From Vulcanimicrobiota bacterium (lineage in GTDB: Bacteria > Vulcanimicrobiota > Vulcanimicrobiia > Vulcanimicrobiales > Vulcanimicrobiaceae): a DNA stretch of 64,000 nucleotides. Below are positions 4,594 to 16,944 of the stretch, piece by piece; positions within the stretch are counted from its first letter, which is position 1, and each line of letters begins with the position of its first letter. The notes under the pieces are model-generated. The model did not search any database and was not told where the DNA came from. It saw nothing but the letters and a program-made list of their open reading frames with translations. The stretch covers positions 384,001 to 448,000 of the forward strand of contig CAWHWQ010000001.1 of NCBI GenBank assembly GCA_963833095.1, in the 5' to 3' direction. A program made the translations under genes and the position numbers.

Positions 4594-5612
4594 GGCTCAT
4601 CAGAACTTCGCGATGTAGCGCCGACTTCGCTGCTGGGGGCAGAAACGACGCATCGGCGGCGTTCGCGATGAAGCGCTGCAGCGTCTCGAGACCCGCGAGG
4701 CTGCGCAACCAGCGCATATTCTTCTGAAATCGAGGTGCCGAAGATTGCCGGATCGTCGGCGTCGATCGTCACGCGCACGCCGCTCGCGTCGAGCTGATGC
4801 AACGGATGCTCGACATCGGCGGGAACGACGCCGGTGCGGGCATTCGAGGTGGGCGAGATTTCGAGCGCAACGTCGCGTTCGCGTAGCAACGCAATCACGT
4901 TCGGGTCTTCGAGCGCGCGAACGCCGTGACCGATGCGCTCGGCCCCGATCGCGAGTGCCCCGTGGACGCTCGATGCTCCGGCGGCCTCGCCGGCGTGGGC
5001 GACGGTGTGTAAACCCTGCGCGCGTGCAAAGGCAAAAACGCCGGCGAAAAGCTCCGGCGGAAAGTTGGCTTCGTCGCCGCCGAGTCCGATGCCGATGACG
5101 CCATCGCCCGCGAGCGACGCGGCAAGCTGCGCCGTGCGCATCGCCGACTCTGCGCCAAAGTTGCGCGTCACATCGACGATGAGCGAGAGTTCGACGCCAT
5201 GGATGCGCGCCGCACGCAGTTCGGCAACCATCGAACGAATCGTGGCCGCAAGATCGAGATCGCGATGGAAAAACGACCAGACCGACGGTGAGATGAAGAG
5301 CTCGCCGTACACCACATTTTGCGCAAGCGCATCGGCGACGAACTCACGCGCCAGTCGCGCGTAATCGTCGGGCGAGGCAAGCGCCCGGCTTACGGCGGCA
5401 AAAATCAACAAGAACTCGGGAAAACCGGTGAACTGGTAAACCTCTGCCGGATCGGTGGGCCCCGGAACCTCGGCTTGGCCAGGCCGATACCGAGTCGAAA
5501 GCCCGTAGCGCCGGGTCAGCTCGACAAAAGTCTGCGCCCGAAGGCTACCTTCGAGGTGGCAGTGGAGGTGAATCTTTGGTAGACTCGCGATGGCCGGATC
5601 CGTCGACTGCAT
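4580..5612 (-). CDS. add: adenosine deaminase (single frameshift near 4700)
   Basis: HLHCHLEGS, HAGEA, RIGHG, DADDP; removing 1 nt near 4700 restores C-terminus LETLQRFIANAADASFL...stop at 4580. Confidence 0.9.
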
Positions 5613-5669
5613 TGTTTCGATGGTTTCGGAAGGAAAGGCATTCGACCCGCCGTATCCAAGCATGCCCAT

Positions 5670-5745
<76 letters not shown>

Positions 5746-5749
5746 TGTG

Positions 5750-5790
5750 CAGGTCCAACAACGGAAACGTTGTTGGACCTGTTTTTATTT
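5750..5790 (+). terminator. intrinsic terminator after tRNA
   Basis: CAGGTCCAACAACG-GAAA-CGTTGTTGGACCTG then TTTTT. Confidence 0.85.
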
Positions 5791-5905
5791 CCGGTGCGAG
5801 TTGTTGGACCAGTCGGCTCTAGTTGTTGGGCCACGCACCACCCCTTTGTTAGACCGCGATGCGGTCTAAGCATGATCGCAGTCCGCGAGGCGAATATCTA
5901 CGGAT

Positions 5906-6220
5906 TCAGCGGCTTCCCAAGACCCGGGCTACGGGCCGACAATTAGCCCCGAAATTGTTTGGGTATGCGCGAAGCTCAGGGAAGGCTAGCGTCATGGAAT
6001 CATTTAAGAGTATCCGTTGCTTAGCTCGGCTTGAGACTACGCCGTGACGATAGAGCACGCCAAAAAGCAGTTGTGCAATCGAGAGGCTTCGCGGCACGTC
6101 CCGCGGAGCCGTCGAGTCTATGTACTCATCGATAGCTGTGAGCGCCGCGCGAGTCGCCACCTCGACCTCGTCGACCCGATACTCGTCGCTATAAAGATAG
6201 GCTATTACGGTTTCGCTCAA
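5906..6220 (-). CDS. hypothetical protein, possibly the frameshifted C-terminus of the upstream RelA/SpoT-like protein
   Basis: TTG start overlaps upstream TGA; same frame is open a few codons further upstream (SATSRLSET). Confidence 0.5.
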   Translation of the reverse strand: MSETVIAYLYSDEYRVDEVEVATRAALTAIDEYIDSTAPRDVPRSLSIAQLLFGVLYRHGVVSSRAKQRILLNDSMTLAFPELRAYPNNFGANCRPVARVLGSR

Positions 6221-6912
6221 GCGGCTCGTCGCACTGGCTGTAGTTCCGCTGGCAACCGCCCTGCTGAAAACAGATCGTTCATGAAAGTAACGAGTTCATT
6301 CTTGGCCGTCACTTCTGGCCAGTTGGACGTTGTAACTATCCCCTCGAGTTCATCGAAGTGCTCGCCTATCGCGTCAAGCTGTTCCACCTGCGCCTTCATT
6401 TGCGCAGCGACACGTACACGCCGCCAACTCACAGTCGGATGCTTATAAACGAGGTCATGCGTAACGGTCTGCCAAGCGTATTCAAAGGCGGACTGAACCT
6501 GGATTTCAAAAGTTAAAGCGTCCAGTGTTTCACGACCTACCGAAGGCTTAAGCGAGCAATACACGCGTGTTCCATCAAACATAAACCGATCAGGTGCCTT
6601 CTTCTTGCTACCCCGAGCTTGGATGTGACGGACGTCGAACACGTCCCTAACGAAATCTAAAACGTGCTCCTCGCGATGAAACGTGGGTATCACGATGGTC
6701 GCAGCATAGACGTCATTCATCGCGCGCCGACTGGCAATGCGACCCGTATCGATTTTCTCAGAGACCGACTCAACCGTCTTGATGCGACCGTTGAAGAGAT
6801 ACAAATTTCCAGTGCAGAAGTGGTCCAAAGTCGACTTCACAATCGCCTCGAGAGCGCGAAATCGATCGAGATTTTCGTTATACCATTGCTGTACTTCGAC
6901 CGGAATGATCAC
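6217..6912 (-). CDS. RelA/SpoT-like nucleotidyltransferase (small alarmone synthetase-like) protein
   Basis: RIKTVES, NDVYA, FEIQVQS, AWQTVTHDLVYK. Confidence 0.78.
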   Translation of the reverse strand: MIIPVEVQQWYNENLDRFRALEAIVKSTLDHFCTGNLYLFNGRIKTVESVSEKIDTGRIASRRAMNDVYAATIVIPTFHREEHVLDFVRDVFDVRHIQARGSKKKAPDRFMFDGTRVYCSLKPSVGRETLDALTFEIQVQSAFEYAWQTVTHDLVYKHPTVSWRRVRVAAQMKAQVEQLDAIGEHFDELEGIVTTSNWPEVTAKNELVTFMNDLFSAGRLPAELQPVRRAA

Positions 6913-7290
6913 CTGAGCAAGTCGTCTAAGCCGCCGGCGAGCAATTGGGTCAGAACAACTGCTCGCGTCTTCCGGGGTCCCGTGTCGTTTGAGGCGGATC
7001 TCGCAGCGTTGTAATACTCAGCCAACACCGGATTCGCCTCGCGGACCTCCCCGTCTTCAAGGACCGATACGAAGCGAGCGAGGCGACCAGCACTCGACGC
7101 AGGGTCCAAAACACCACCGCCCTCAAGTGCCGAATCCACCGCTCCAAAGAGTGAGTAATAGTCGGCCTGGTTTCGCAATCGCGTAGTCCTAAGATTTACG
7201 CCGCCCCCGGATCGTAATATGCGATCAAGCATCTCAAACGAGGCGCGAAATCGTCTTTCGATGGCCGTTTCTGCTTCCCACTCCGAAGAT
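6909..7290 (-). pseudogene. 3' fragment of a probable DUF262-family protein
   Basis: EWE...RFR...RLRNQADYYSLFGAV...YYNAARSASND resembles DUF262 protein C-termini (from memory); frame open only to ~7305. Confidence 0.5.
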
Positions 7291-7318
7291 TCGCACTGAG
7301 GCGTGGGTTACCACAGGA

Positions 7319-7594
7319 ATGGCTTTGAGCAACGCTGGCAACGACGGACGAGATTTTGAGCAGCAGTTGGCGCTTGCCCAAGCAATCTACGAGGATCGGA
7401 GTAAGGCGGTTCACGCAGGGTTCGAGCCAGAACACGTGTACCTCGCGCGGAAGATGGCGCTCGGCCCGATAGAGGCAATGATACGAAAGCAGCACGAACT
7501 CCCGACGCGCAGAAAAATCAAGGAGAGGCTAGAGCCATACGTGCCACCAGAGCCCCCAAAGTCGTCTCCCGAACAGACATCTCCCGTATCCTAG
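7319..7594 (+). pseudogene. 3' fragment of an Apea-like HEPN domain protein
   Basis: IYEDRSKAVHAG fits the Y-x2-RS-x2-VH (Rx4H) HEPN motif; N-terminal part missing. Confidence 0.55.
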
Positions 7595-7737
7595 TTAGGC
7601 AACTGTTCGTGATCGACGCAGCGGCCCGACGAACGTTCACGCCTTGCTTTGAGAGGTGAGTCGTGGTGTGGTGGTCCCGTACGATCTACGAACTGGGCCC
7701 AGGCCGATTGTGTTGCGCGCGTCGAAGAAATTTGTAA

Positions 7738-8490
7738 ATGGATTCGCCAGACCCGCTAGCCGAAGCGAACTTAAAGATCAAATGGGCCGACAAACGCATC
7801 AAGAAGATTGACGTTCTCGCGCACAACTATATTCACAATGGGTGCTTCCGCGTCGACATTGAACACGACGCGGAAGCAGGAAAGAAGCACGCCAAGCTTC
7901 GGCTCGTCGGCGACATACCTGATGATCTGATCGACGAAACGCACGCGGCGCTTGGGTTTCTTCGTGGTTCCCTCGATTCGATCGCCTGGGCCGTAGCCAA
8001 TAGGTCCGGTCCGCCCAAACATCCGAAGACCGTCGCGTTTCCGGTTGGAGAGAGCCAGCAAGCTTTCGAAAGTGCCGGCACTCAGGGAAAAATAGAGCAA
8101 GTTGGGGCCGATTGGGCCGCGTTCGTTGCAACGCTGAAACCATACCGTGGAGGGAATGATCTCCTCTACGATCTCCACACCTTTAACAACGCGGACAAAC
8201 ACCAGACACTTACTCGAATCGGGCAAAACAGCGATCTCTCCAGCTTCAGGGCTCAGTGGCAAGGCGAAGTCAGCTTCAATGTCGCCATGTTCGGCTTTGC
8301 GCTGGACGACGGCGACATACTCGTTACCGTTAACGAGTCTGACCCCGACCCGATGTTGAAGTTGAAGATGGGTATAGCGTTCTGCGAGGTTGGTCCCGAC
8401 AAGATTCGCGGGAAGCTGGTCGTAGCAACGCTCAAGCAGTTTTCGAGTCTTTGCGCTGGTATCGTCAAAGCCGCGCGTTCGCTGTTCTAA
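7738..8490 (+). CDS. hypothetical island protein
   Basis: 250-aa ORF with globular composition; PYRGGN and NNADKH segments. Confidence 0.7.
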   Translation: MDSPDPLAEANLKIKWADKRIKKIDVLAHNYIHNGCFRVDIEHDAEAGKKHAKLRLVGDIPDDLIDETHAALGFLRGSLDSIAWAVANRSGPPKHPKTVAFPVGESQQAFESAGTQGKIEQVGADWAAFVATLKPYRGGNDLLYDLHTFNNADKHQTLTRIGQNSDLSSFRAQWQGEVSFNVAMFGFALDDGDILVTVNESDPDPMLKLKMGIAFCEVGPDKIRGKLVVATLKQFSSLCAGIVKAARSLF

Positions 8491-8593
8491 TTGGTCTTCT
8501 TTTTACTCGCGCACGTCGAACGCGCCGACCGGATCGGCATCCGACGCTCGATAGCCAAGGCAGGTCCGCTAAGCCAAGTCCGGCTGACGGCGA

Positions 8594-9013
8594 TTACTCA
8601 AATCGTTTGCCGATGTTGCCGACGCCTTTTCCAGCATAGCGCCCGGCAATGGTGTCGGCGTCGGCCTTGTAAGGTATCTTTCCCGTAACACCGAGTTCCC
8701 GCAACGCCGCCCTGACGCGATTTACATCGGCAGAATCTTCGTAATCATACGTGTAGACACAAATCACGCGGCCGCTTTTTCCTGCACTAGCTGCGCTGGT
8801 TGACATTTTTGCGGTAGAGCCTAGCAGACCACGAATCGTAGCATCGCTAATCTTCTTCCAAACAACCTCTGCGTTGTTTTCCGAGACAAAAATTAGCCAC
8901 TTGCCACCGCGCTCCGCGTGGTCAGGATACGACCCGGCCTTCTTCGAACGGAAGGCCCAAAGCCACCACGGGTCCTCGAAGCGCTCGATGGATTCAGTCT
9001 TGCGCTTACTCAT
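8594..9013 (-). CDS. DUF1917-like (eIF4E-like fold / putative phosphothreonine lyase domain) protein
   Basis: GKWLIFV, WKKI, AKMST, VICVYTYDYED, YKADADT. Confidence 0.7.
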   Translation of the reverse strand: MSKRKTESIERFEDPWWLWAFRSKKAGSYPDHAERGGKWLIFVSENNAEVVWKKISDATIRGLLGSTAKMSTSAASAGKSGRVICVYTYDYEDSADVNRVRAALRELGVTGKIPYKADADTIAGRYAGKGVGNIGKRFE

Positions 9014-9016
9014 CCA

Positions 9017-9385
9017 TTACCGGACTAGCTCTGCTGCATAGTGTCCGCCCTTATAATGCAGCGCGTAGTGCTGTGATCCGTCCGTGGAGGTTAGAACGCA
9101 CAATTCCACCTCGTCGGCCGTTCCTGGAGGCAGATTGCCGATCATCTTGCCGTCTGACCCCATGTTGTACGCGAAGTTTGCAACGTAAACGTGGCCGTCA
9201 TCGAGTTCAACGTCCTTGCCGATTCCGTTCATACCGAGAGGGAGCATCTTGGCTCTCATCGCTTCGTACTTAGGACTCTGGTCGTCCGTAACTTGGACGA
9301 CGTGTCTCGTTGAACACGGGTTTGACGAACAGGCAGCAACAAGCGAGACGGAGAGCAGCGCTACGGCAAAACGAGGCTTAGCCAC
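9017..9385 (-). CDS. hypothetical lipoprotein
   Basis: Hydrophobic stretch ending in lipobox LVAAC. Confidence 0.6.
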   Translation of the reverse strand: MAKPRFAVALLSVSLVAACSSNPCSTRHVVQVTDDQSPKYEAMRAKMLPLGMNGIGKDVELDDGHVYVANFAYNMGSDGKMIGNLPPGTADEVELCVLTSTDGSQHYALHYKGGHYAAELVR

Positions 9386-9844
9386 AGGGTAGAGGTTTCA
9401 CGGCTGGGCGGTCTTTTACCTGATCCGAGAGTCCAGAACTCTCGAAGGTGCGCCAGACAGACGACCTCGGGATCGCGCCCGCTGTCACACAAGGCGTGGC
9501 GTACACGAGTCAGGAGTTCCAAGAGGTGCGGCGCGCTTTGCTGGCGTGCAATGATGCTGACCGCGCATTCCTTCGGCGCTGGCTACTGGCCTGGGTGGAT
9601 GATCGCGGGCGAATCCGCCGCGACGCGGGCCTCTGCCTGATCGCGGTGAGCCTGAACGACGGGGATGAGCTCTTCGCCGTCCCTGGATAGATCGCGACGG
9701 TGTCTACCGATTTCGGTAGTCCGTTGTACCCAGAATTGCGACGACAAGGCCCGGCTACATCGGTGTTTCGGGCACCTAAAGTCGAGAGCGCCAGTAGTAT
9801 GCGGTACGATATACTCGGTAGCGCGCTGAGGAGGCGCTTTGACA

Positions 9845-9981
9845 TGACACGACTTCTTTACCGATGCGAACGCTGTCGTTTCGAGTTCGCGAGCACCGGC
9901 AAGGTTCGGCCCACGCCAACCAAACTACCCTGCCCAGTACCCGGCTGCACCGGCACTGGCGTGCTCTCCAATCCTGCTTGA
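9845..9981 (+). CDS. small zinc-ribbon-like protein
   Basis: MTRLLYRCERC...CPVPGC; GAGGAGG upstream of the ATG. Confidence 0.45.
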
Positions 9982-10011
9982 CCATCGGGACGACCGTGCT
10001 GCGCGTATCGA

Positions 10012-10905
10012 ATGAGGCTACATATGAGTATCCGCGATAAGGCTGTGCGAACGCTATTCGGTCTCGCCTTGTTCTTCGCTGTGGGGCTCACTTTATCAAG
10101 CGCGGCTACGCCGCCGACGCCGATTCACGTCATTGTGGATTCCGCTCGCTCCATCCCCGTTACGGTGCAGAACTCTACTCATCCCATCCCCGTCGCGGCA
10201 CAAAGCCCCGCGCTCCCCATCCCCGTTGTAGTGCAAAACTTTCCGTTGCCAGATTGGACTTCGGTGGTTACCGCCATCGGGACTGGGGTGTTGGCCCTGG
10301 GTATTGTCATTGCGCTATTGCAATTTCGTCAAGACCGTTTATTCAATCGCGTTCTACAAACTGGCGGTCTAATCAAACTGTGGAGTAAAAACAAGTACTG
10401 GATTGCCAGGAGTCGCATCGACAAGGATTATGACCAAGGGATAAATCGTCAGAGGGTCAACCGCCTGTACGTGGGTGTGAAGCGATTCAAAGGTTTCAAA
10501 GCATTCCGCGAGTTGGAAGTTGATGTGTACAACTTCATTGAGGAATCGACTCGGATGGCGGAACGAATGGATATTTATATTAGCCGTGGTGTTGCCGACC
10601 TGGGTCTGATTGCTGACCACCTTGGCTATGATGTGTTGGAATTGTACTACTGTATCCAGGATGTTCTTCATGAACGTGCCTTGACTGAGGATTTGAACTA
10701 CGAAGGCTTTCGTGATTTGTCCCTTCGCATTCAGCATTATGCTCGTTTACACAAGGATGTTGACATACGTGACGAGTTGGTTTGGGCGGTCTTTCCGCCG
10801 TTGCCATACCGTGGTGGTGACGAATCCGAAGGCTATCGTACGTCGCGCTTCTATCGTTGGCGCTTAAAGCTGGCGCGGCAGAAGTTCATGAAAAAGACTG
10901 ACTGA
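10012..10905 (+). CDS. membrane-anchored hypothetical protein (possibly DUF4760-like)
   Basis: Signal peptide, repeated (P)IPV-x-xQ units, one TM helix, AT-richer helical C-domain. Confidence 0.65.
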   Translation: MRLHMSIRDKAVRTLFGLALFFAVGLTLSSAATPPTPIHVIVDSARSIPVTVQNSTHPIPVAAQSPALPIPVVVQNFPLPDWTSVVTAIGTGVLALGIVIALLQFRQDRLFNRVLQTGGLIKLWSKNKYWIARSRIDKDYDQGINRQRVNRLYVGVKRFKGFKAFRELEVDVYNFIEESTRMAERMDIYISRGVADLGLIADHLGYDVLELYYCIQDVLHERALTEDLNYEGFRDLSLRIQHYARLHKDVDIRDELVWAVFPPLPYRGGDESEGYRTSRFYRWRLKLARQKFMKKTD

Positions 10906-11028
10906 GCAAAAAGGCGCTCTGTTATCGGTATCAATTCGGCCTCACAATCGACCTATAGAGTTTCGTTAGGGCGAGCGAGCCAATGGGATCATGGTCGAGC
11001 GGTGCTTCCGATGAGGAAAGGAACGAGA

Positions 11029-11518
11029 ATGAAAAGCAGATTTGCTAAGGCACGCTTCGCGCTCGCTGCTGCACTGTTGTTCGTCGTCGCACCCGCGAGG
11101 GCAACAACGTCCGTAACGATGGACGGCGTGTGATGGCAAGAGCTTCCCCCAACGTAAAAGTTTACGTGGTGCAGGGCATGATTACGGGTCTAGCTGAAGG
11201 CCACAACAGCGGCTGGGCCGATGGGGAAAAGTACGTCCGTGACACCTACATCACTTCGTCGCAGCAACGACTCGCGATCCTTCAAAAAGGCAAACGAAGA
11301 AGCTGATGGCCGGGACAAATGCAGAGGCGGCCAATGCTCCTGTATTTTCTAAGGCTTTCGGAACATACATTGACGAACTCGACACCTGGTATGAGGCCCA
11401 CCCGAAAAGGACGATTATCCGGCCTATCGTCCTTTTGGACCAGTGCCTCGCTGACAACGCTACTTTGCCAGCGATAGGACTTTCTTGCGACGACCTCGGG
11501 AAAGACTTCGACAAATAG
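11029..11518 (+). pseudogene. degraded secreted-protein gene
   Basis: SD plus MKSRFAKARFALAAALLFVVAPARA signal, in-frame TGA and frameshifts, continuing into ORF 11306-11518. Confidence 0.55.
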
Positions 11519-11824
11519 GCCTTCGGCCCAGGCGTCCTCAATGTCAGAAACAGAATCGCATCATAGCCGTGACAGTGCCCGCACAGCGTCATCGGGGACG
11601 CGGACCGCGTCTCGAAATTGCGGCCCCTACAGTGCTCTTCCGGTGTGCCGGATAAATCCAGGCCGTCGTCAGCGCTGATGGAGCCTGCAGCGCGGTTACC
11701 CCGGGCAGCTAGCGCGCTCCAGGCTTGCGCAGGATTGATACACGGTTGATGATGGGCGTTGAGGGATTCTGGGACGATTCGGCCCACGTATTGATTAGAG
11801 GCCGGGCTTTTCGAGGTCGGTTTT

Positions 11825-11958
11825 GCGGTGGAGCAGTCCGGTAGCCGTTTCGGCGGCGGCCGAAATGCGCGGCGTTTTCAGGCGAATGCCGTAGAAAACG
11901 CATAGTCGTCGGGCTCATAACCCGAAGGTCGCAAGTTCAAATCTTGCCCCCGCAACCA
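11825..11958 (+). pseudogene. interrupted tRNA-fMet copy (attR plus D-arm half, 60-nt insert)
   Basis: GCGGTGGAGCAGTCCGGTAGC + insert 11846-11905 + TCGTCGGGCTCATAACCC...GCAACCA. Confidence 0.8.
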
Positions 11959-11963
11959 AAACG

Positions 11964-12006
11964 AACAGGTCCAAAACGGGAACATTGTTGGACCTGTTTC
12001 TTTTTC
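11964..12006 (+). terminator. intrinsic terminator, homologous to 5750-5790
   Basis: AACAGGTCCAA...TTGGACCTGTT then TCTTTTT. Confidence 0.75.
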
Positions 12007-12015
12007 GCAGCCGCA

Positions 12016-13707
12016 TCAAGTTGCGGCGGCGAGAGCACTCAAGCGACGCTGCAACAACGCGTTTTCTTCGCGGATCGCGTCAGTTTCAATCGCGGCAATG
12101 GCGATTGCAATGGCTCCGGCGATATTGGCAACGGCTTTGTCGATATCGGGTGGAATCGCCTCTCCGCCCGCGCGGTCGCCAATGCAGAGAACGCCAACGA
12201 GGCGACCGGCGAGGATCATGGGATAAGCCCGCACGCCAGGGAATGCCGTCGCTAGATCGTGCAGATCCAGAGGCTCTTGATGACCGCGCATATCGGCGCA
12301 CGCGGCGTCGTTCTCCTCGATCTCTGCGGGAGCCTCAGGCCATGACGATCCTGCTTTTGCGAGGGCGCCGTTCGCTGCCAAGTAGACGGCGGTCCCGTCC
12401 ACGAGTGCATACTGGCCTACCGTGTCCAAGGTGTCGCGGATGAGCGGCTTCGTCGACGTATAAAACTGCGCCGTCGTCGCATACCGCACAAGAGCCAACT
12501 CCTGCGCATGCCTCGCGCGGAACAAGATATTGTCTACGGCGCGGTCGACCCGAGTATGCACGACCCGCGCGCTGACGACCACCACGAGGACGATGATAAA
12601 ATCTACAACCGCACTTTCTACCCGCGTCAACGCCAGCAGGTACCGTTCGGCGAAGAATTCGAGCGCCGCGAACATCAGAATTAAGATCGCCGAGGTCAGC
12701 GCGTACACCACCGTGCGATTCAGTACGAACTCGATATCGAAGACACGGTGTTTGAGTATGGCATACGTCACCGCAATCGGAATCAGGTCGAGCGATATCG
12801 TGGTGTAAATCAGAAATACGGTAAATGGTATTCTTCCGAGCGAAAAGGCGATCATGGTTATGGCATAGCCCACGCCGCCGATCATGATCGCCGCAAAGAC
12901 GATGCCGACGCGGGCGCGATCTTCCGGTTTCGCAAGACGCAGCGAAAGCACCGACGCGCAAAGAAGCACGAGTGCCCACAAGCCGCACATGACGGCATAA
13001 GCAATTTGCGATCGTTCGGCGATGACGTCGAGCAAGAATCCGGCGACAACGATCGCATCGACTACGCGGATCGCGCGGAGCCTCTGCGGCGAGGGCGCGG
13101 TACCGGGAAGGCGAATCGCAAACGACGCGAGCACCAAGACCGGGAAAATATTGCACAGGTCGCGCAAGATCCAGGCGATGACGGCGAAGACGGGCGCCGG
13201 CACCCAGAAGAGCTGTGCGGCAAAACTTGACCAGCTCAAGCCGCCGCCGCCGAGGAACAGGATCAAGGCGAAAAGCATTGCGCTCGGACGACGGTATCCA
13301 AGATACCCCACAAGTAAGAACGCGAGCGCAGCTGAAAGCGCCACAAAGATTCGCTGCGAAAGGTCGGTAACGCGCGGAACCGTTTCTCGAACGGCGATCA
13401 ATTGGATTCCCGACGGCGTCTCCAATGGCACGCTCACCATCGCGCCTTTCGCACCGTAGCGCAGCCGTATGCGGTCTACCCAGGGGATGACATCGAGTCG
13501 AACGTGCGCCCCCGGCACGATACCGAGCGCCTGCATTTCTGCGCTCGCCCTCGTGACCGTCGCCGCTCGCCACAAGCCGGGGTTGTCTAGTTCAAATGCC
13601 GGATGATAGGCGTCTGGTCCGATGGATACGGCTAGAACCATGGCAAGCCACGTTAGCGCAAAGGCGGGCAGCAGAACACGCGCTGCCCTCTGACTGGACT
13701 CGCTCAT
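12016..13707 (-). CDS. multi-pass membrane sensor-like protein with C-terminal GAF-like domain
   Basis: Many TM helices, YAILKHRVFDIE...NRTVVY motif, GAF-like PMILAGRLVGVL; no kinase or cyclase domain. Confidence 0.75.
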   Translation of the reverse strand: MSESSQRAARVLLPAFALTWLAMVLAVSIGPDAYHPAFELDNPGLWRAATVTRASAEMQALGIVPGAHVRLDVIPWVDRIRLRYGAKGAMVSVPLETPSGIQLIAVRETVPRVTDLSQRIFVALSAALAFLLVGYLGYRRPSAMLFALILFLGGGGLSWSSFAAQLFWVPAPVFAVIAWILRDLCNIFPVLVLASFAIRLPGTAPSPQRLRAIRVVDAIVVAGFLLDVIAERSQIAYAVMCGLWALVLLCASVLSLRLAKPEDRARVGIVFAAIMIGGVGYAITMIAFSLGRIPFTVFLIYTTISLDLIPIAVTYAILKHRVFDIEFVLNRTVVYALTSAILILMFAALEFFAERYLLALTRVESAVVDFIIVLVVVVSARVVHTRVDRAVDNILFRARHAQELALVRYATTAQFYTSTKPLIRDTLDTVGQYALVDGTAVYLAANGALAKAGSSWPEAPAEIEENDAACADMRGHQEPLDLHDLATAFPGVRAYPMILAGRLVGVLCIGDRAGGEAIPPDIDKAVANIAGAIAIAIAAIETDAIREENALLQRRLSALAAAT

Positions 13708-13754
13708 GCGGATACGTTCGTCACGTATCGAACCTGCACCGCCCTTACCCCGTG

Positions 13755-14099
13755 CTACGTGAGCGGCGAGAGATGCTTTGGTTCGTACAGGCCGAGCTTG
13801 TCGCCACTCGGGAGTTCGAGCGTCGTCACCAAACCCCAGCCGCGGTCGGCGACCGGTGTCGTTTTGATTCCCTTTGTCTCGAGCTGCGCTACCGTCGTGG
13901 CGATATCGTCGCAGATAAGCCACAGTTCATGTTCGGGGTCGTCTTCGGTTTCATGGACCCCGAGTTCGGTCGGCGGTGCGGCGAAAAAGAGTCGCCCGTT
14001 TCCCGCATCGACATAGCGCAGGTCGAGCACGTCCTTGAGAAAGGCGTACATCTCTTTAGCGTGTTTGGTGTAGAAGATCGCGTGCATCCCAGTAATCAT
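13755..14099 (-). CDS. VOC/glyoxalase family protein
   Basis: HAIFY...ELWLICDDI...DRGWG...LYEPKH. Confidence 0.85.
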   Translation of the reverse strand: MITGMHAIFYTKHAKEMYAFLKDVLDLRYVDAGNGRLFFAAPPTELGVHETEDDPEHELWLICDDIATTVAQLETKGIKTTPVADRGWGLVTTLELPSGDKLGLYEPKHLSPLT

Positions 14100-15823: not shown

Positions 15824-16201
15824 CTAGGGCAGCGGAAGTTCTTCGATGGCGTCGACGCGATCAGGATAAAAGGCGAGATAGTCTTTAATCTGCGCGACCG
15901 CGTCGTACGGCGCCTCGTACGTCCAGACGGCGTTCGCGCGACGCTCGCCGCCGACGCGAATGCTAAAATACCCCGCTTCGCCCTTATACGGGCAGTACGA
16001 TTCATGATCGGCCGGCTCGAGCAGCGACATGTCAGCATCGGCGCGCGGCACGTAGTACACCGATGGATAGTCGCTTTCGCGTAGGGTCAGCGCGGCGTGT
16101 GTGTCGGCGACGACACGTCCGGCGACGACGACGCGAACACGGTTACCGCTCGGTTCGATCGTGATCGGGTGTTCGGCATTCGGGATTTTCATCGTTTTCA
16201 T
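15824..16201 (-). CDS. DUF427 domain protein
   Basis: YYVPRAD, YCPYKGEAGY, AVWTYEAP. Confidence 0.9.
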   Translation of the reverse strand: MKTMKIPNAEHPITIEPSGNRVRVVVAGRVVADTHAALTLRESDYPSVYYVPRADADMSLLEPADHESYCPYKGEAGYFSIRVGGERRANAVWTYEAPYDAVAQIKDYLAFYPDRVDAIEELPLP

Positions 16202-16944
16202 AGCGCAGTTTTTCCTCCGTTGACGTCGATGATCTGGCCGGTGATGAACGAAGCTTTTTCCGAAGCGAGGAAAACGATTGCGTTTGCAATTTCTTGCGGC
16301 TCGCCTGCGCGCTTCATCGGCACGCCCGCGATCAGAGTGGCTTTCCGGTCAGCAGTGCCGGTAAACCGGGTGAGCATCTCGGTATCCACCGGACCGGGGG
16401 CAATCGCATTGACCCGCACACCATAAGCAGCGGCTTCAAGTGCTGCCGCTTTCGTAAGACCCTCGACGGCGTGTTTACTCGCGGTGTAGACCGACGCGCC
16501 CGGCGCGCCACGATGCCCCACCGTCGATGAGAGGTTGATGATGCTCCCGGATCCCTGTGGTTGCATCACGCGCAATTCGTGTTTGAGGCTTAACAGCGTG
16601 CCCAGCACATTCGCATCGAACGTGGAGCTGTAATTTTCGACGGTCTGGCCGGTGATCGGGCCGGTTTGCCCTTCGGTTCCCGCGCTGTTCACCGCGGCGT
16701 CGAGCCGGCCAAAGCGCGCGACAACGCTGTCGACGACGTCGCGCACATCGTCGTCATTGCGGACATCGACGCGGAAGAACTCCGCTTCCGCGCCGAGCCC
16801 GCGAAGCTCGGCGACGAGTGCACTCCCAGCGTCGTCGCGCCGGCCGGAAACGGCGACTCGCGCGCCTTCCTTCGCAAAAGCGATGGCGGTTGCGCGACCA
16901 ATGCCGCTGAGCGCTCCGGTAATAAAGACAACTTGCGATTCCAT
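16198..16944 (-). CDS. SDR family oxidoreductase
   Basis: TGALSGIG, NSAG, YTASK. Confidence 0.93.
   Translation of the reverse strand: MESQVVFITGALSGIGRATAIAFAKEGARVAVSGRRDDAGSALVAELRGLGAEAEFFRVDVRNDDDVRDVVDSVVARFGRLDAAVNSAGTEGQTGPITGQTVENYSSTFDANVLGTLLSLKHELRVMQPQGSGSIINLSSTVGHRGAPGASVYTASKHAVEGLTKAAALEAAAYGVRVNAIAPGPVDTEMLTRFTGTADRKATLIAGVPMKRAGEPQEIANAIVFLASEKASFITGQIIDVNGGKTAL

Follow-up and report, generated by a model that had tools for sequence, protein, structure and literature searches.

The feature considered here is a second, interrupted copy of the initiator tRNA gene (tRNA-fMet), which lies at the right end of a 6.1-kb variable island in a member of Vulcanimicrobiota, an uncultured phylum of soil and peat. 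The analysed window is a stretch of 64,000 nucleotides (assembly GCA_963833095.1, contig CAWHWQ010000001.1, positions 384,001 to 448,000), corresponding to C1:384-448 kb of the genome designated here as G000, and coordinates given without further label refer to it. The module composed of the broken copy, its leader, its insert and the following terminator is best regarded as an uncommon variant of the usual scar at tRNA genes, and neither a functional tRNA nor an intron nor a multicopy mini-element. With about even confidence we read the feature as the far end of an integrase-less island, marked by a displaced 3′ part of the tRNA, in which case the insert and a 19-nt piece of the 5′ half would descend from a once complete copy of the gene.

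ARAGORN called one tRNA gene in the window, tRNA-Met(CAT), which has the C1/A72 mismatch of bacterial initiators, and a BLAST search with its 76 nt against the whole assembly (8 contigs, 81% complete) returned one full copy of tRNA-fMet. By BLAST and alignment, positions 6-24 of this gene (5675-5693) reappear at 11827-11845 (19/19) and positions 25-76 at 11906-11957 (52/52), the latter segment being a direct repeat of 5694-5745, so that the broken copy agrees with the live gene in 71 of 71 tRNA-like positions. The two pieces are separated by exactly 60 nt, and at the junction no tRNA base is lost and none is duplicated, the 3′ strand of the D stem (GCTC) being cut between GC and TC. A match of 19 nt within 100 nt is expected by chance at the level of ~4e-10. 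The split D-arm architecture with a precise gap, described in the initial annotation from the sequence, is thereby confirmed, and so is its placement at the right end of the island, where native trailer and flank follow the broken copy. The acceptor 5′ strand had also been described as damaged, and indeed the seven bases preceding U8 read TTTGCGG against CGCGGGG in the intact gene. Removal of the 60 nt restores gene positions 6-76, the acceptor remaining defective with 5 of 7 pairs in register, while in the predicted fold of the unspliced sequence UUGCGG pairs over all six positions with CCGCAA of the 3′ end and forms a shifted 6-bp closing helix. As for the claim of an intact 3′ end, it stands for CCA, which is encoded in the broken copy (11956-11958) at the place where the intact copy reads CC-T, and stands in part for the terminator: a hairpin with a T run is present downstream, but it is weaker than the counterparts in relatives and escaped the consensus terminator scan. 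The broken copy was not called as tRNA by ARAGORN, and the tRNA model of Rfam matched it partially (11891-11948, 31.9 bits, model positions 7-64); in E-value mode Rfam returned two tRNA matches over 5000-13000 and neither an intron family nor RF00391. A scan for promoter-like sites near the module found none.

The insert adopts the two hairpins drawn earlier from the sequence alone, hairpin 1 with the stem 11846-11854/11859-11867 and hairpin 2 with two stems, of which the outer pairs 11872-11879/11894-11901 and the inner, 11881-11883/11888-11890, closes the GAAT loop 11884-11887. The energy of the 60-nt fold (-28.1 kcal/mol, z = -3.4) was not reached by any of 200 shuffles, and both here and in the second species described below a better fold is obtained for the plus strand than for the minus strand. 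In G000 the insert is present once, all other BLAST matches being of 14 nt or less. Among 401 genomes of the phylum, including ten marked as unpublished which were all negative, real BLAST matches to the insert were confined to G000 and to G013, another species of the genus, and a pattern search for the anticodon-arm segment of tRNA-fMet without the preceding D-stem C also gave 2 genomes of 401. Exact-junction patterns, which would miss diverged junctions, matched one of 185,579 species genomes, again G013 (own genome of the window may be left out of that collection). A scan of metagenome contigs gave four loci, all of them chance matches inside coding DNA without tRNA, and two scans of viral contigs gave no match to the module. 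At the insert borders there are neither terminal inverted repeats nor target duplication, and a search for the Y1 transposase (PF01797) gave no match in G000, the assembly of which is 81% complete. Misassembly, named beforehand as a possible refutation, is ruled out by contigs of two other sequencing runs crossing the junctions: the 655-nt contig X7 from a peat metagenome spans 11500-11953 with both junctions, differing by 10 substitutions and 1 gap, and the 207-nt contig X1 from a soil metagenome spans 11651-11856. Since no run held half of the sampled words, these contigs are from related strains and not obviously from the source sample. In the single metatranscriptome compared (X15), contigs lie only on the 3′ part of the tRNA and on the gene with the GAF domain located to the right of the module, being uninformative on expression of the module either way.

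Features of the split tRNA-fMet locus in the window and the approaches used to define them
Feature	Position	Strand	Basis
Intact initiator tRNA-Met(CAT); 3′ end ..ACC-T, CCA not fully encoded	5670..5745	+	ARAGORN; Rfam, 65.2 bits; BLAST
Left end of the island: terminator hairpin (5749-5782), then GTTGTTGGACC repeats at 5769, 5800 and 5822	5746..5835	+	Terminator scan; motif search
Variable island, 6.1 kb, no recombinase found	5746..11826		Pfam, PADLOC, NCBIfam, PHROGs; composition; empty site in G002
RelA_SpoT-like gene	6217-6912	-	Pfam
Bles03-like gene	8594-9013	-	Pfam
Leader, including degenerate acceptor 5′ strand TTTGCGG (11820-11826)	11790..11826	+	Alignment, weakly alignable to G013
19-nt 5′ piece: end of acceptor strand, D-stem 5′ strand, D loop, half of D-stem 3′ strand	11827..11845	+	BLAST
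60-nt insert: hairpins 1 and 2, tail ATAG (11902-11905)	11846..11905	+	Fold; BLAST
52-nt 3′ part (D-stem 3′ side, anticodon arm, T arm, acceptor 3′ strand) and CCA-completing A	11906..11958	+	BLAST; Rfam
Native-type tRNA-fMet terminator, then native flank	11966..12005	+	Identity to trailers of relatives

A homologous module in a second species

The occurrence of the same split architecture in relatives, which had been put forward as a check, was established for G013 and, as a strain variant, for the contig X7. In G013 an intact tRNA-fMet gene (L013:748-824) is followed ~5.2 kb downstream by the module (L013:5970-6116), comprising a complete acceptor 5′ strand, the D-stem 5′ strand, a diverged D loop and a 71-nt homologue of the insert (L013:5994-6064). 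Its 52-nt 3′ part has two substitutions, one changing G to A in the anticodon stem and another located in the T stem, encodes CCA and is followed by a terminator of the genus type. The D stem is split in both species, and this copy also was not called by ARAGORN; it keeps a normal closing helix of seven pairs between the 5′ and 3′ parts. The T arm of each module carries the tRNA allele of its own host. G013 has two intact tRNA-fMet genes, at L013 (C2:748-824) and at L017 (C10, 2979-3054, minus strand), each located after an adenosine-deaminase-like gene and differing in both upstream and downstream DNA, which points to segmental duplication or else to a bin containing two strains.

Judging from the neighboring genes the loci of the two genomes may be considered as roughly orthologous: in G013 the module is followed by a DUF1348 gene and, at a distance of ~1 kb, by a gene with the GAF domain (7131-8822), while several kb further on a gene matching window 15830-16497 is found. 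The GAF gene is inverted in G013 relative to its counterpart at 12016-13923 in G000, and the intervening DUF1348 gene was not found in G000. The homology of the two loci is confined to the module with unalignable flanks on both sides, and the island interiors share neither DNA nor proteins, apart from a distant RelA_SpoT domain (33% over 80 aa). The cargo of the G013 island includes TIR, TPR and RelA_SpoT-like proteins, so that in both species genes of defence type are found in the island.

Taking the 65% identity at third codon positions of the orthologous GAF gene as a neutral yardstick, parts of the module appear to be conserved to quite different extents. The linker, hairpin 2 and tail are identical in 33 of 38 positions, which exceeds the neutral rate (P = 0.002) and also exceeds hairpin 1 and leader taken together (29/57; Fisher P = 0.0004), since the hairpin 1 region retains 12 of 22 positions, acquiring in addition a 10-nt nested hairpin in G013, and the leader 17 of 35. 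For the 5′ and 3′ tRNA pieces the corresponding values are 16/19 and 46/52. In hairpin 1 the outer stem is kept in G013 with two pair-preserving double changes (C-G to T-A in both cases) and one broken pair, and a conserved G-T pair works on the plus strand only. Hairpin 2 loses one pair in G013, and since the best fold of this sequence has a different hairpin in its place, hairpin 2 seems to be conserved as sequence more than as structure. RNAalifold recovered no cloverleaf, which with two sequences only is uninformative.

The island and the tRNA-fMet site in the genus

The composition of the island is foreign to its surroundings (G+C of 0.51-0.59 against 0.60-0.64 in the flanks), and its open reading frames (ORFs) other than the two Pfam-assigned ones in the table belong to no family. 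Unoccupied sites are found in relatives: in G002 the adenosine-deaminase (ada) flank, a single tRNA-fMet, the native trailer and the GAF gene are all accommodated in one 3.1-kb locus, and in G001, G011, G014 and G015 the native trailer directly follows the tRNA. The trailer at the right end of the G000 island is 89-95% identical to the post-tRNA trailers of G009, G002, G011, G001 and G014, and the right flank begins with the end of the GAF-domain gene (12016-13923, minus strand). The left-end trailer is of another origin, having its best matches in another clade, with G017 (86.5%) and G006 (88%), and being absent from the nearest relatives G002 and G009, which possess the other trailer type. 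The intact gene is thus native upstream and imported downstream, while for the broken copy the reverse is true, and this is the arrangement that results when DNA inserts within the 3′ portion of a tRNA gene.

Compared to G009, the right-end trailer is 94.8% and the flank 99.6% identical; nevertheless the module is missing from G009, whose intact tRNA stands at the end of a contig, so that distribution of the module is patchy even among close relatives. In G009, the closest relative of G000, the assembly breaks exactly at the 3′ end of tRNA-fMet: contig C14 ends with ..CCCCCGCAACC (L037:1730-1806), and C17 starts with the last 10 nt of the tRNA and the native trailer (L016:1-60). This break suggests presence/absence variation of an island in the population. 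Another island, of 7.3 kb, occupies the same tRNA gene in G007; its boundary repeat comprises no more than 11 nt of the tRNA 3′ end plus the terminator, and its genes are helicase-like and ATPase-like. Comparison of the G000 island with those of G013, G007 and contig C10 of G013 gave no shared cargo beyond terminator pieces.

The island ends show several further peculiarities. Arrays of GTTGTTGGACC-like motifs, of 3-5 copies at a distance of 22-31 nt, stand directly behind tRNA-fMet in G000 and also in G017 (L008), G006 (L009) and G018 (L010); the first pair of motifs forms the terminator stem, and in G006 the array is present although the next gene lies only ~530 nt beyond the tRNA. In the G000 genome GTTGTTGGACC occurs at the left-end locus only, ruling it out as a genome-wide uptake or REP-like (repetitive extragenic palindromic) signal. 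Such arrays could serve a recombinase as arm-type sites, could be iteron-like, or could be scars that earlier insertions left one upon another. Near the left end, three overlapping ORFs of the minus strand (5906-7232), coding for 107 aa, the RelA_SpoT-like protein of 231 aa and 104 aa, are arranged in an operon-like manner compatible with a toxSAS-type toxin-antitoxin or defence module; for the small proteins flanking the RelA_SpoT-like one no family was found in Pfam, PADLOC, NCBIfam and PHROGs. At the right end an ORF of 178 aa (11251-11787, minus strand) adjoins the module. No homologue of it turned up among 300 family genomes, its differences from X7 fall at codon positions 1 or 2 in four cases of six, and it may be non-coding. 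Because this ORF may not be a gene, the hairpins have no clear target as an operator, and this candidate role was rejected. A minus-strand ORF starting from ATG of the anticodon (11709-11918) was also discarded: it is not conserved, and G013 has a 1-nt indel with an early stop.

Origin of the module and competing explanations

According to the reading we favour, the 6.1-kb island would sit in the 3′ part of the only initiator-tRNA gene of G000, with 11906-11957 as the displaced 3′ fragment left by any insertion into a tRNA gene, and the gene at 5670 would be a regenerated copy built from the native upstream half and the island-supplied trailer. On the island side of the junction, remnants of a formerly whole tRNA-fMet copy would persist, its 5′ piece standing 60 nt upstream, beyond the two-hairpin spacer; descent from a whole copy is indicated by the intact acceptor strand of the G013 module. 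Gain and loss of the island may proceed through exchange inside the 52-nt repeat, with homologous recombination or a trans-acting recombinase as the possible mechanism. Crossovers would have to fall to the right of the spacer, since any exchange on its left would break the single essential initiator gene. Host alleles in the T arms are expected if DNA to the right of the crossover is that of the host, implying a crossover left of the T arm, and the change in the anticodon stem of G013, belonging then to the island side, is consistent with this position. Hairpin 2, abutting the repeat, might act as a cis-acting site, for instance an arm-type site or one bound by an accessory protein.

Several observations weigh against this reading. 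No recombinase was detected among the 10 ORFs of the island by Pfam, PADLOC and NCBIfam, nor by PHROGs among the eight ORFs without Pfam family, nor in the G013 island by Pfam, PADLOC and NCBIfam, and the three tyrosine-recombinase (PF00589) matches of G000 are located on C3 or at C1:940-944 kb, ~550 kb away. The left ends and cargo of the G000 and G013 islands are unrelated, and since only the module is common to both, they fit poorly to one family of elements with two conserved arms. Neither an excised circle nor an alternative junction was seen in the contigs, which cannot show rare forms. Displacement of a fragment by itself leaves the 19-nt 5′ piece upstream and the clean entry of the 60-nt spacer unexplained, and the identity of 71 positions out of 71, combined with a spacer strongly diverged from that of G013, has to be accounted for by selection, gene conversion or a recent recombination event. 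That hairpin 2 serves as a binding site is purely conjectural.

If the module never had any role, it may be a remnant of an ancestral tandem pair of tRNA-fMet genes, the second of which was killed by the 60-nt insertion and is decaying, while defence genes accumulated between the two as in any hotspot. Such a scenario, which we regard as rather unlikely, accounts well for the full acceptor 5′ strand in G013, pointing to a complete gene in the ancestor, for the rough orthology of the two loci and for disabling changes that differ between the two copies; hairpin 1 with its 10-nt indel and the leader are at or below the neutral level, and in X7 the insert accumulated 4 changes per 60 nt compared to 6 per 346 nt upstream, giving no sign of strong constraint. 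The block of hairpin 2 and tail behaves otherwise, being conserved above the level of third codon positions, and an old pseudogene should not remain fully identical to the live gene; besides, many independent losses would be needed, since close relatives of G000 have no module. As hairpin 2 is more conserved than neutral sites, the same block may have a binding-site or RNA role. One such possibility is an expressed tRNA-like RNA with its own leader and terminator, which would retain anticodon arm, T arm, an acceptor-like helix and CCA and have two hairpins in place of the D arm; in the island it could work as antitoxin, sensor or decoy towards an effector directed at tRNA, the RelA_SpoT-like protein being one candidate. 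This reading would profit from gene-like limits of the conserved block, which extends from leader to terminator between non-homologous DNA on both sides, from CCA encoded in both modules and from a closing helix of the 5′ and 3′ parts in both, whether of seven pairs or shifted. The two compensatory changes and plus-strand G-T pair of hairpin 1, together with the folding bias to the plus strand, speak in the same direction, as does the location of all four X7 changes of the insert in its 20 unpaired positions (P ~0.012). A gene with the RelA_SpoT domain is present in both module-bearing islands, and toxSAS enzymes are reported to pyrophosphorylate CCA ends of tRNA. We nevertheless hold this possibility to be improbable: the comparison includes two sequences and one variant only, two pairs are broken in G013, where the fold exchanges hairpin 2 for another hairpin, and no promoter-like site was found in the scan near the module. 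Moreover, the RelA_SpoT proteins of G000 and G013 are barely related and have unrelated neighbours, four of six small RelA_SpoT genes in the genus lie elsewhere, and the antitoxins of toxSAS known so far are proteins. The tie of a decoy RNA to SAS-like and HEPN-like genes, suggested in the initial annotation, has no support, its only link being the RelA_SpoT gene in both islands. A more ambitious variant, in which the module is a functional unit, either a tRNA-fMet-like decoy or sensor RNA for tRNA-directed defence or toxin genes or a cis-acting end of an integrase-free island shuttle that enters and leaves through homology to the universally conserved initiator-tRNA sequence, with a spacer guarding the single essential gene by confining crossovers, appears quite improbable to us.

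Single-strand (HUH) transposition inserts without target duplication or base loss. A footprint of small mobile DNA of the IS200/IS605 kind with its palindrome-associated transposable elements (PATEs), of the REP kind or of the kind of miniature inverted-repeat transposable elements (MITEs), or an intron-like sequence, could thus have entered the D arm of a spare tRNA copy precisely, in agreement with the exact insertion, the lack of duplication or loss and the hairpins near both ends. We consider this very improbable, since the insert has a single copy in the genome and no second site in the 401 phylum genomes or viral contigs, Y1 transposase, terminal inverted repeats and Rfam intron families gave no match in the searches described above, and both known copies occupy one place by descent and not by independent insertion. 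Both options of this kind offered in the initial annotation are unlikely: the palindromic mini-element on account of its single copy and its presence in 2 of 401 phylum genomes, which rule out a multicopy element, as well as borders devoid of inverted repeats and target duplication and the absence of a Y1 match; the intron on account of its position in the D stem of a bacterial tRNA, the lack of an Rfam intron family and a further disabling change in the copy of each species. Neither a group I core, sought with Rfam, nor a bulge-helix-bulge motif, inspected by eye only, was found. The broken copy of G000 is also predicted not to be a working tRNA, because ARAGORN did not call it, its D stem is split and its acceptor 5′ strand is lost, whereas the counterpart in G013 has changes in anticodon and T stems.

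Relation to known systems

Fragments of tRNA genes at island ends are routine; they are valuable for delimiting islands, and an annotator can readily take them for tRNA genes. The oddity of the present case consists in a conserved structured spacer that has a preserved half of the gene on either side, and in recombinase-less islands with unrelated cargo in two species. If the conserved hairpin is a working site or RNA, it would exemplify integrase-free swapping of defence genes at a tRNA hotspot; as it stands, the module is a well-documented curiosity, of use chiefly in annotation, where it should not be labelled as a split or intron-bearing tRNA. Interrupted tRNA genes are represented by group I introns in anticodon loops of bacterial tRNAs and by bulge-helix-bulge introns and split tRNAs in archaea. 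The module resembles them in having a structured insert within tRNA sequence, but here the insert is located in the D stem and not in the anticodon loop, its 60 nt are far below the size of a group I core, the host is a bacterium and other tRNA features are broken. Families of REP sequences and bacterial interspersed mosaic elements (BIMEs), PATEs of IS200/IS605 and MITEs are defined by many copies. With these miniature palindromic repeats our insert shares small size, richness in hairpins and exact borders, differing by its single copy in the genome and its occurrence at the same site in 2 of 401 genomes.

The tRNA-linked repeats (TLRs) of E. coli, which include the small RNAs rrA/rrB/rrF, offer a further comparison; some TLRs undergo transcription and processing and bind proteins, and TLRs stand directly behind the gene in the same operon and have a repeat of 18-19 bp (PMC8144298). 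The copy considered here is removed from the gene by 6.1 kb that include a terminator and genes of opposite orientation, has a repeat of 52 nt, keeps a 5′ piece and gives no match to RF00391. The microcin H47 island of E. coli is described as small, lacking a recombinase and excising through short direct repeats (PMC3191183, PMC5426353). The G000 island is likewise small, bounded by direct repeats and devoid of its own site-specific recombinase, while its repeat is tRNA-derived and 52 nt long, and its excision would be analogous by inference only.

The closest likeness is to islands of the Islander collection, for which PMC4383910 reports 3760 islands with 3′ tDNA fragments and 2083 anticodon-centred islands of 3919, partial tRNA genes at island ends being described as pervasive in PMC9897764. 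As in such islands, an intact tRNA marks one end (5670-5745) and an exact same-strand 3′ copy the other (11906-11957) on one replicon, the fragment reaches the gene end and passes into native flank, the site is empty in G002, G001, G011, G014 and G015, and composition is foreign. The identity block sets in immediately ahead of the anticodon stem and continues up to the 3′ end, which assigns it to the anticodon-centred type, common among Islander islands (PMC4383910). What sets our case apart is that library scans of the island ORFs gave no integrase, that two islands have the same boundary module with neither cargo nor left end in common, and that a 19-nt 5′ piece stands 60 nt upstream of the fragment, giving it the appearance of a whole gene with an insert.

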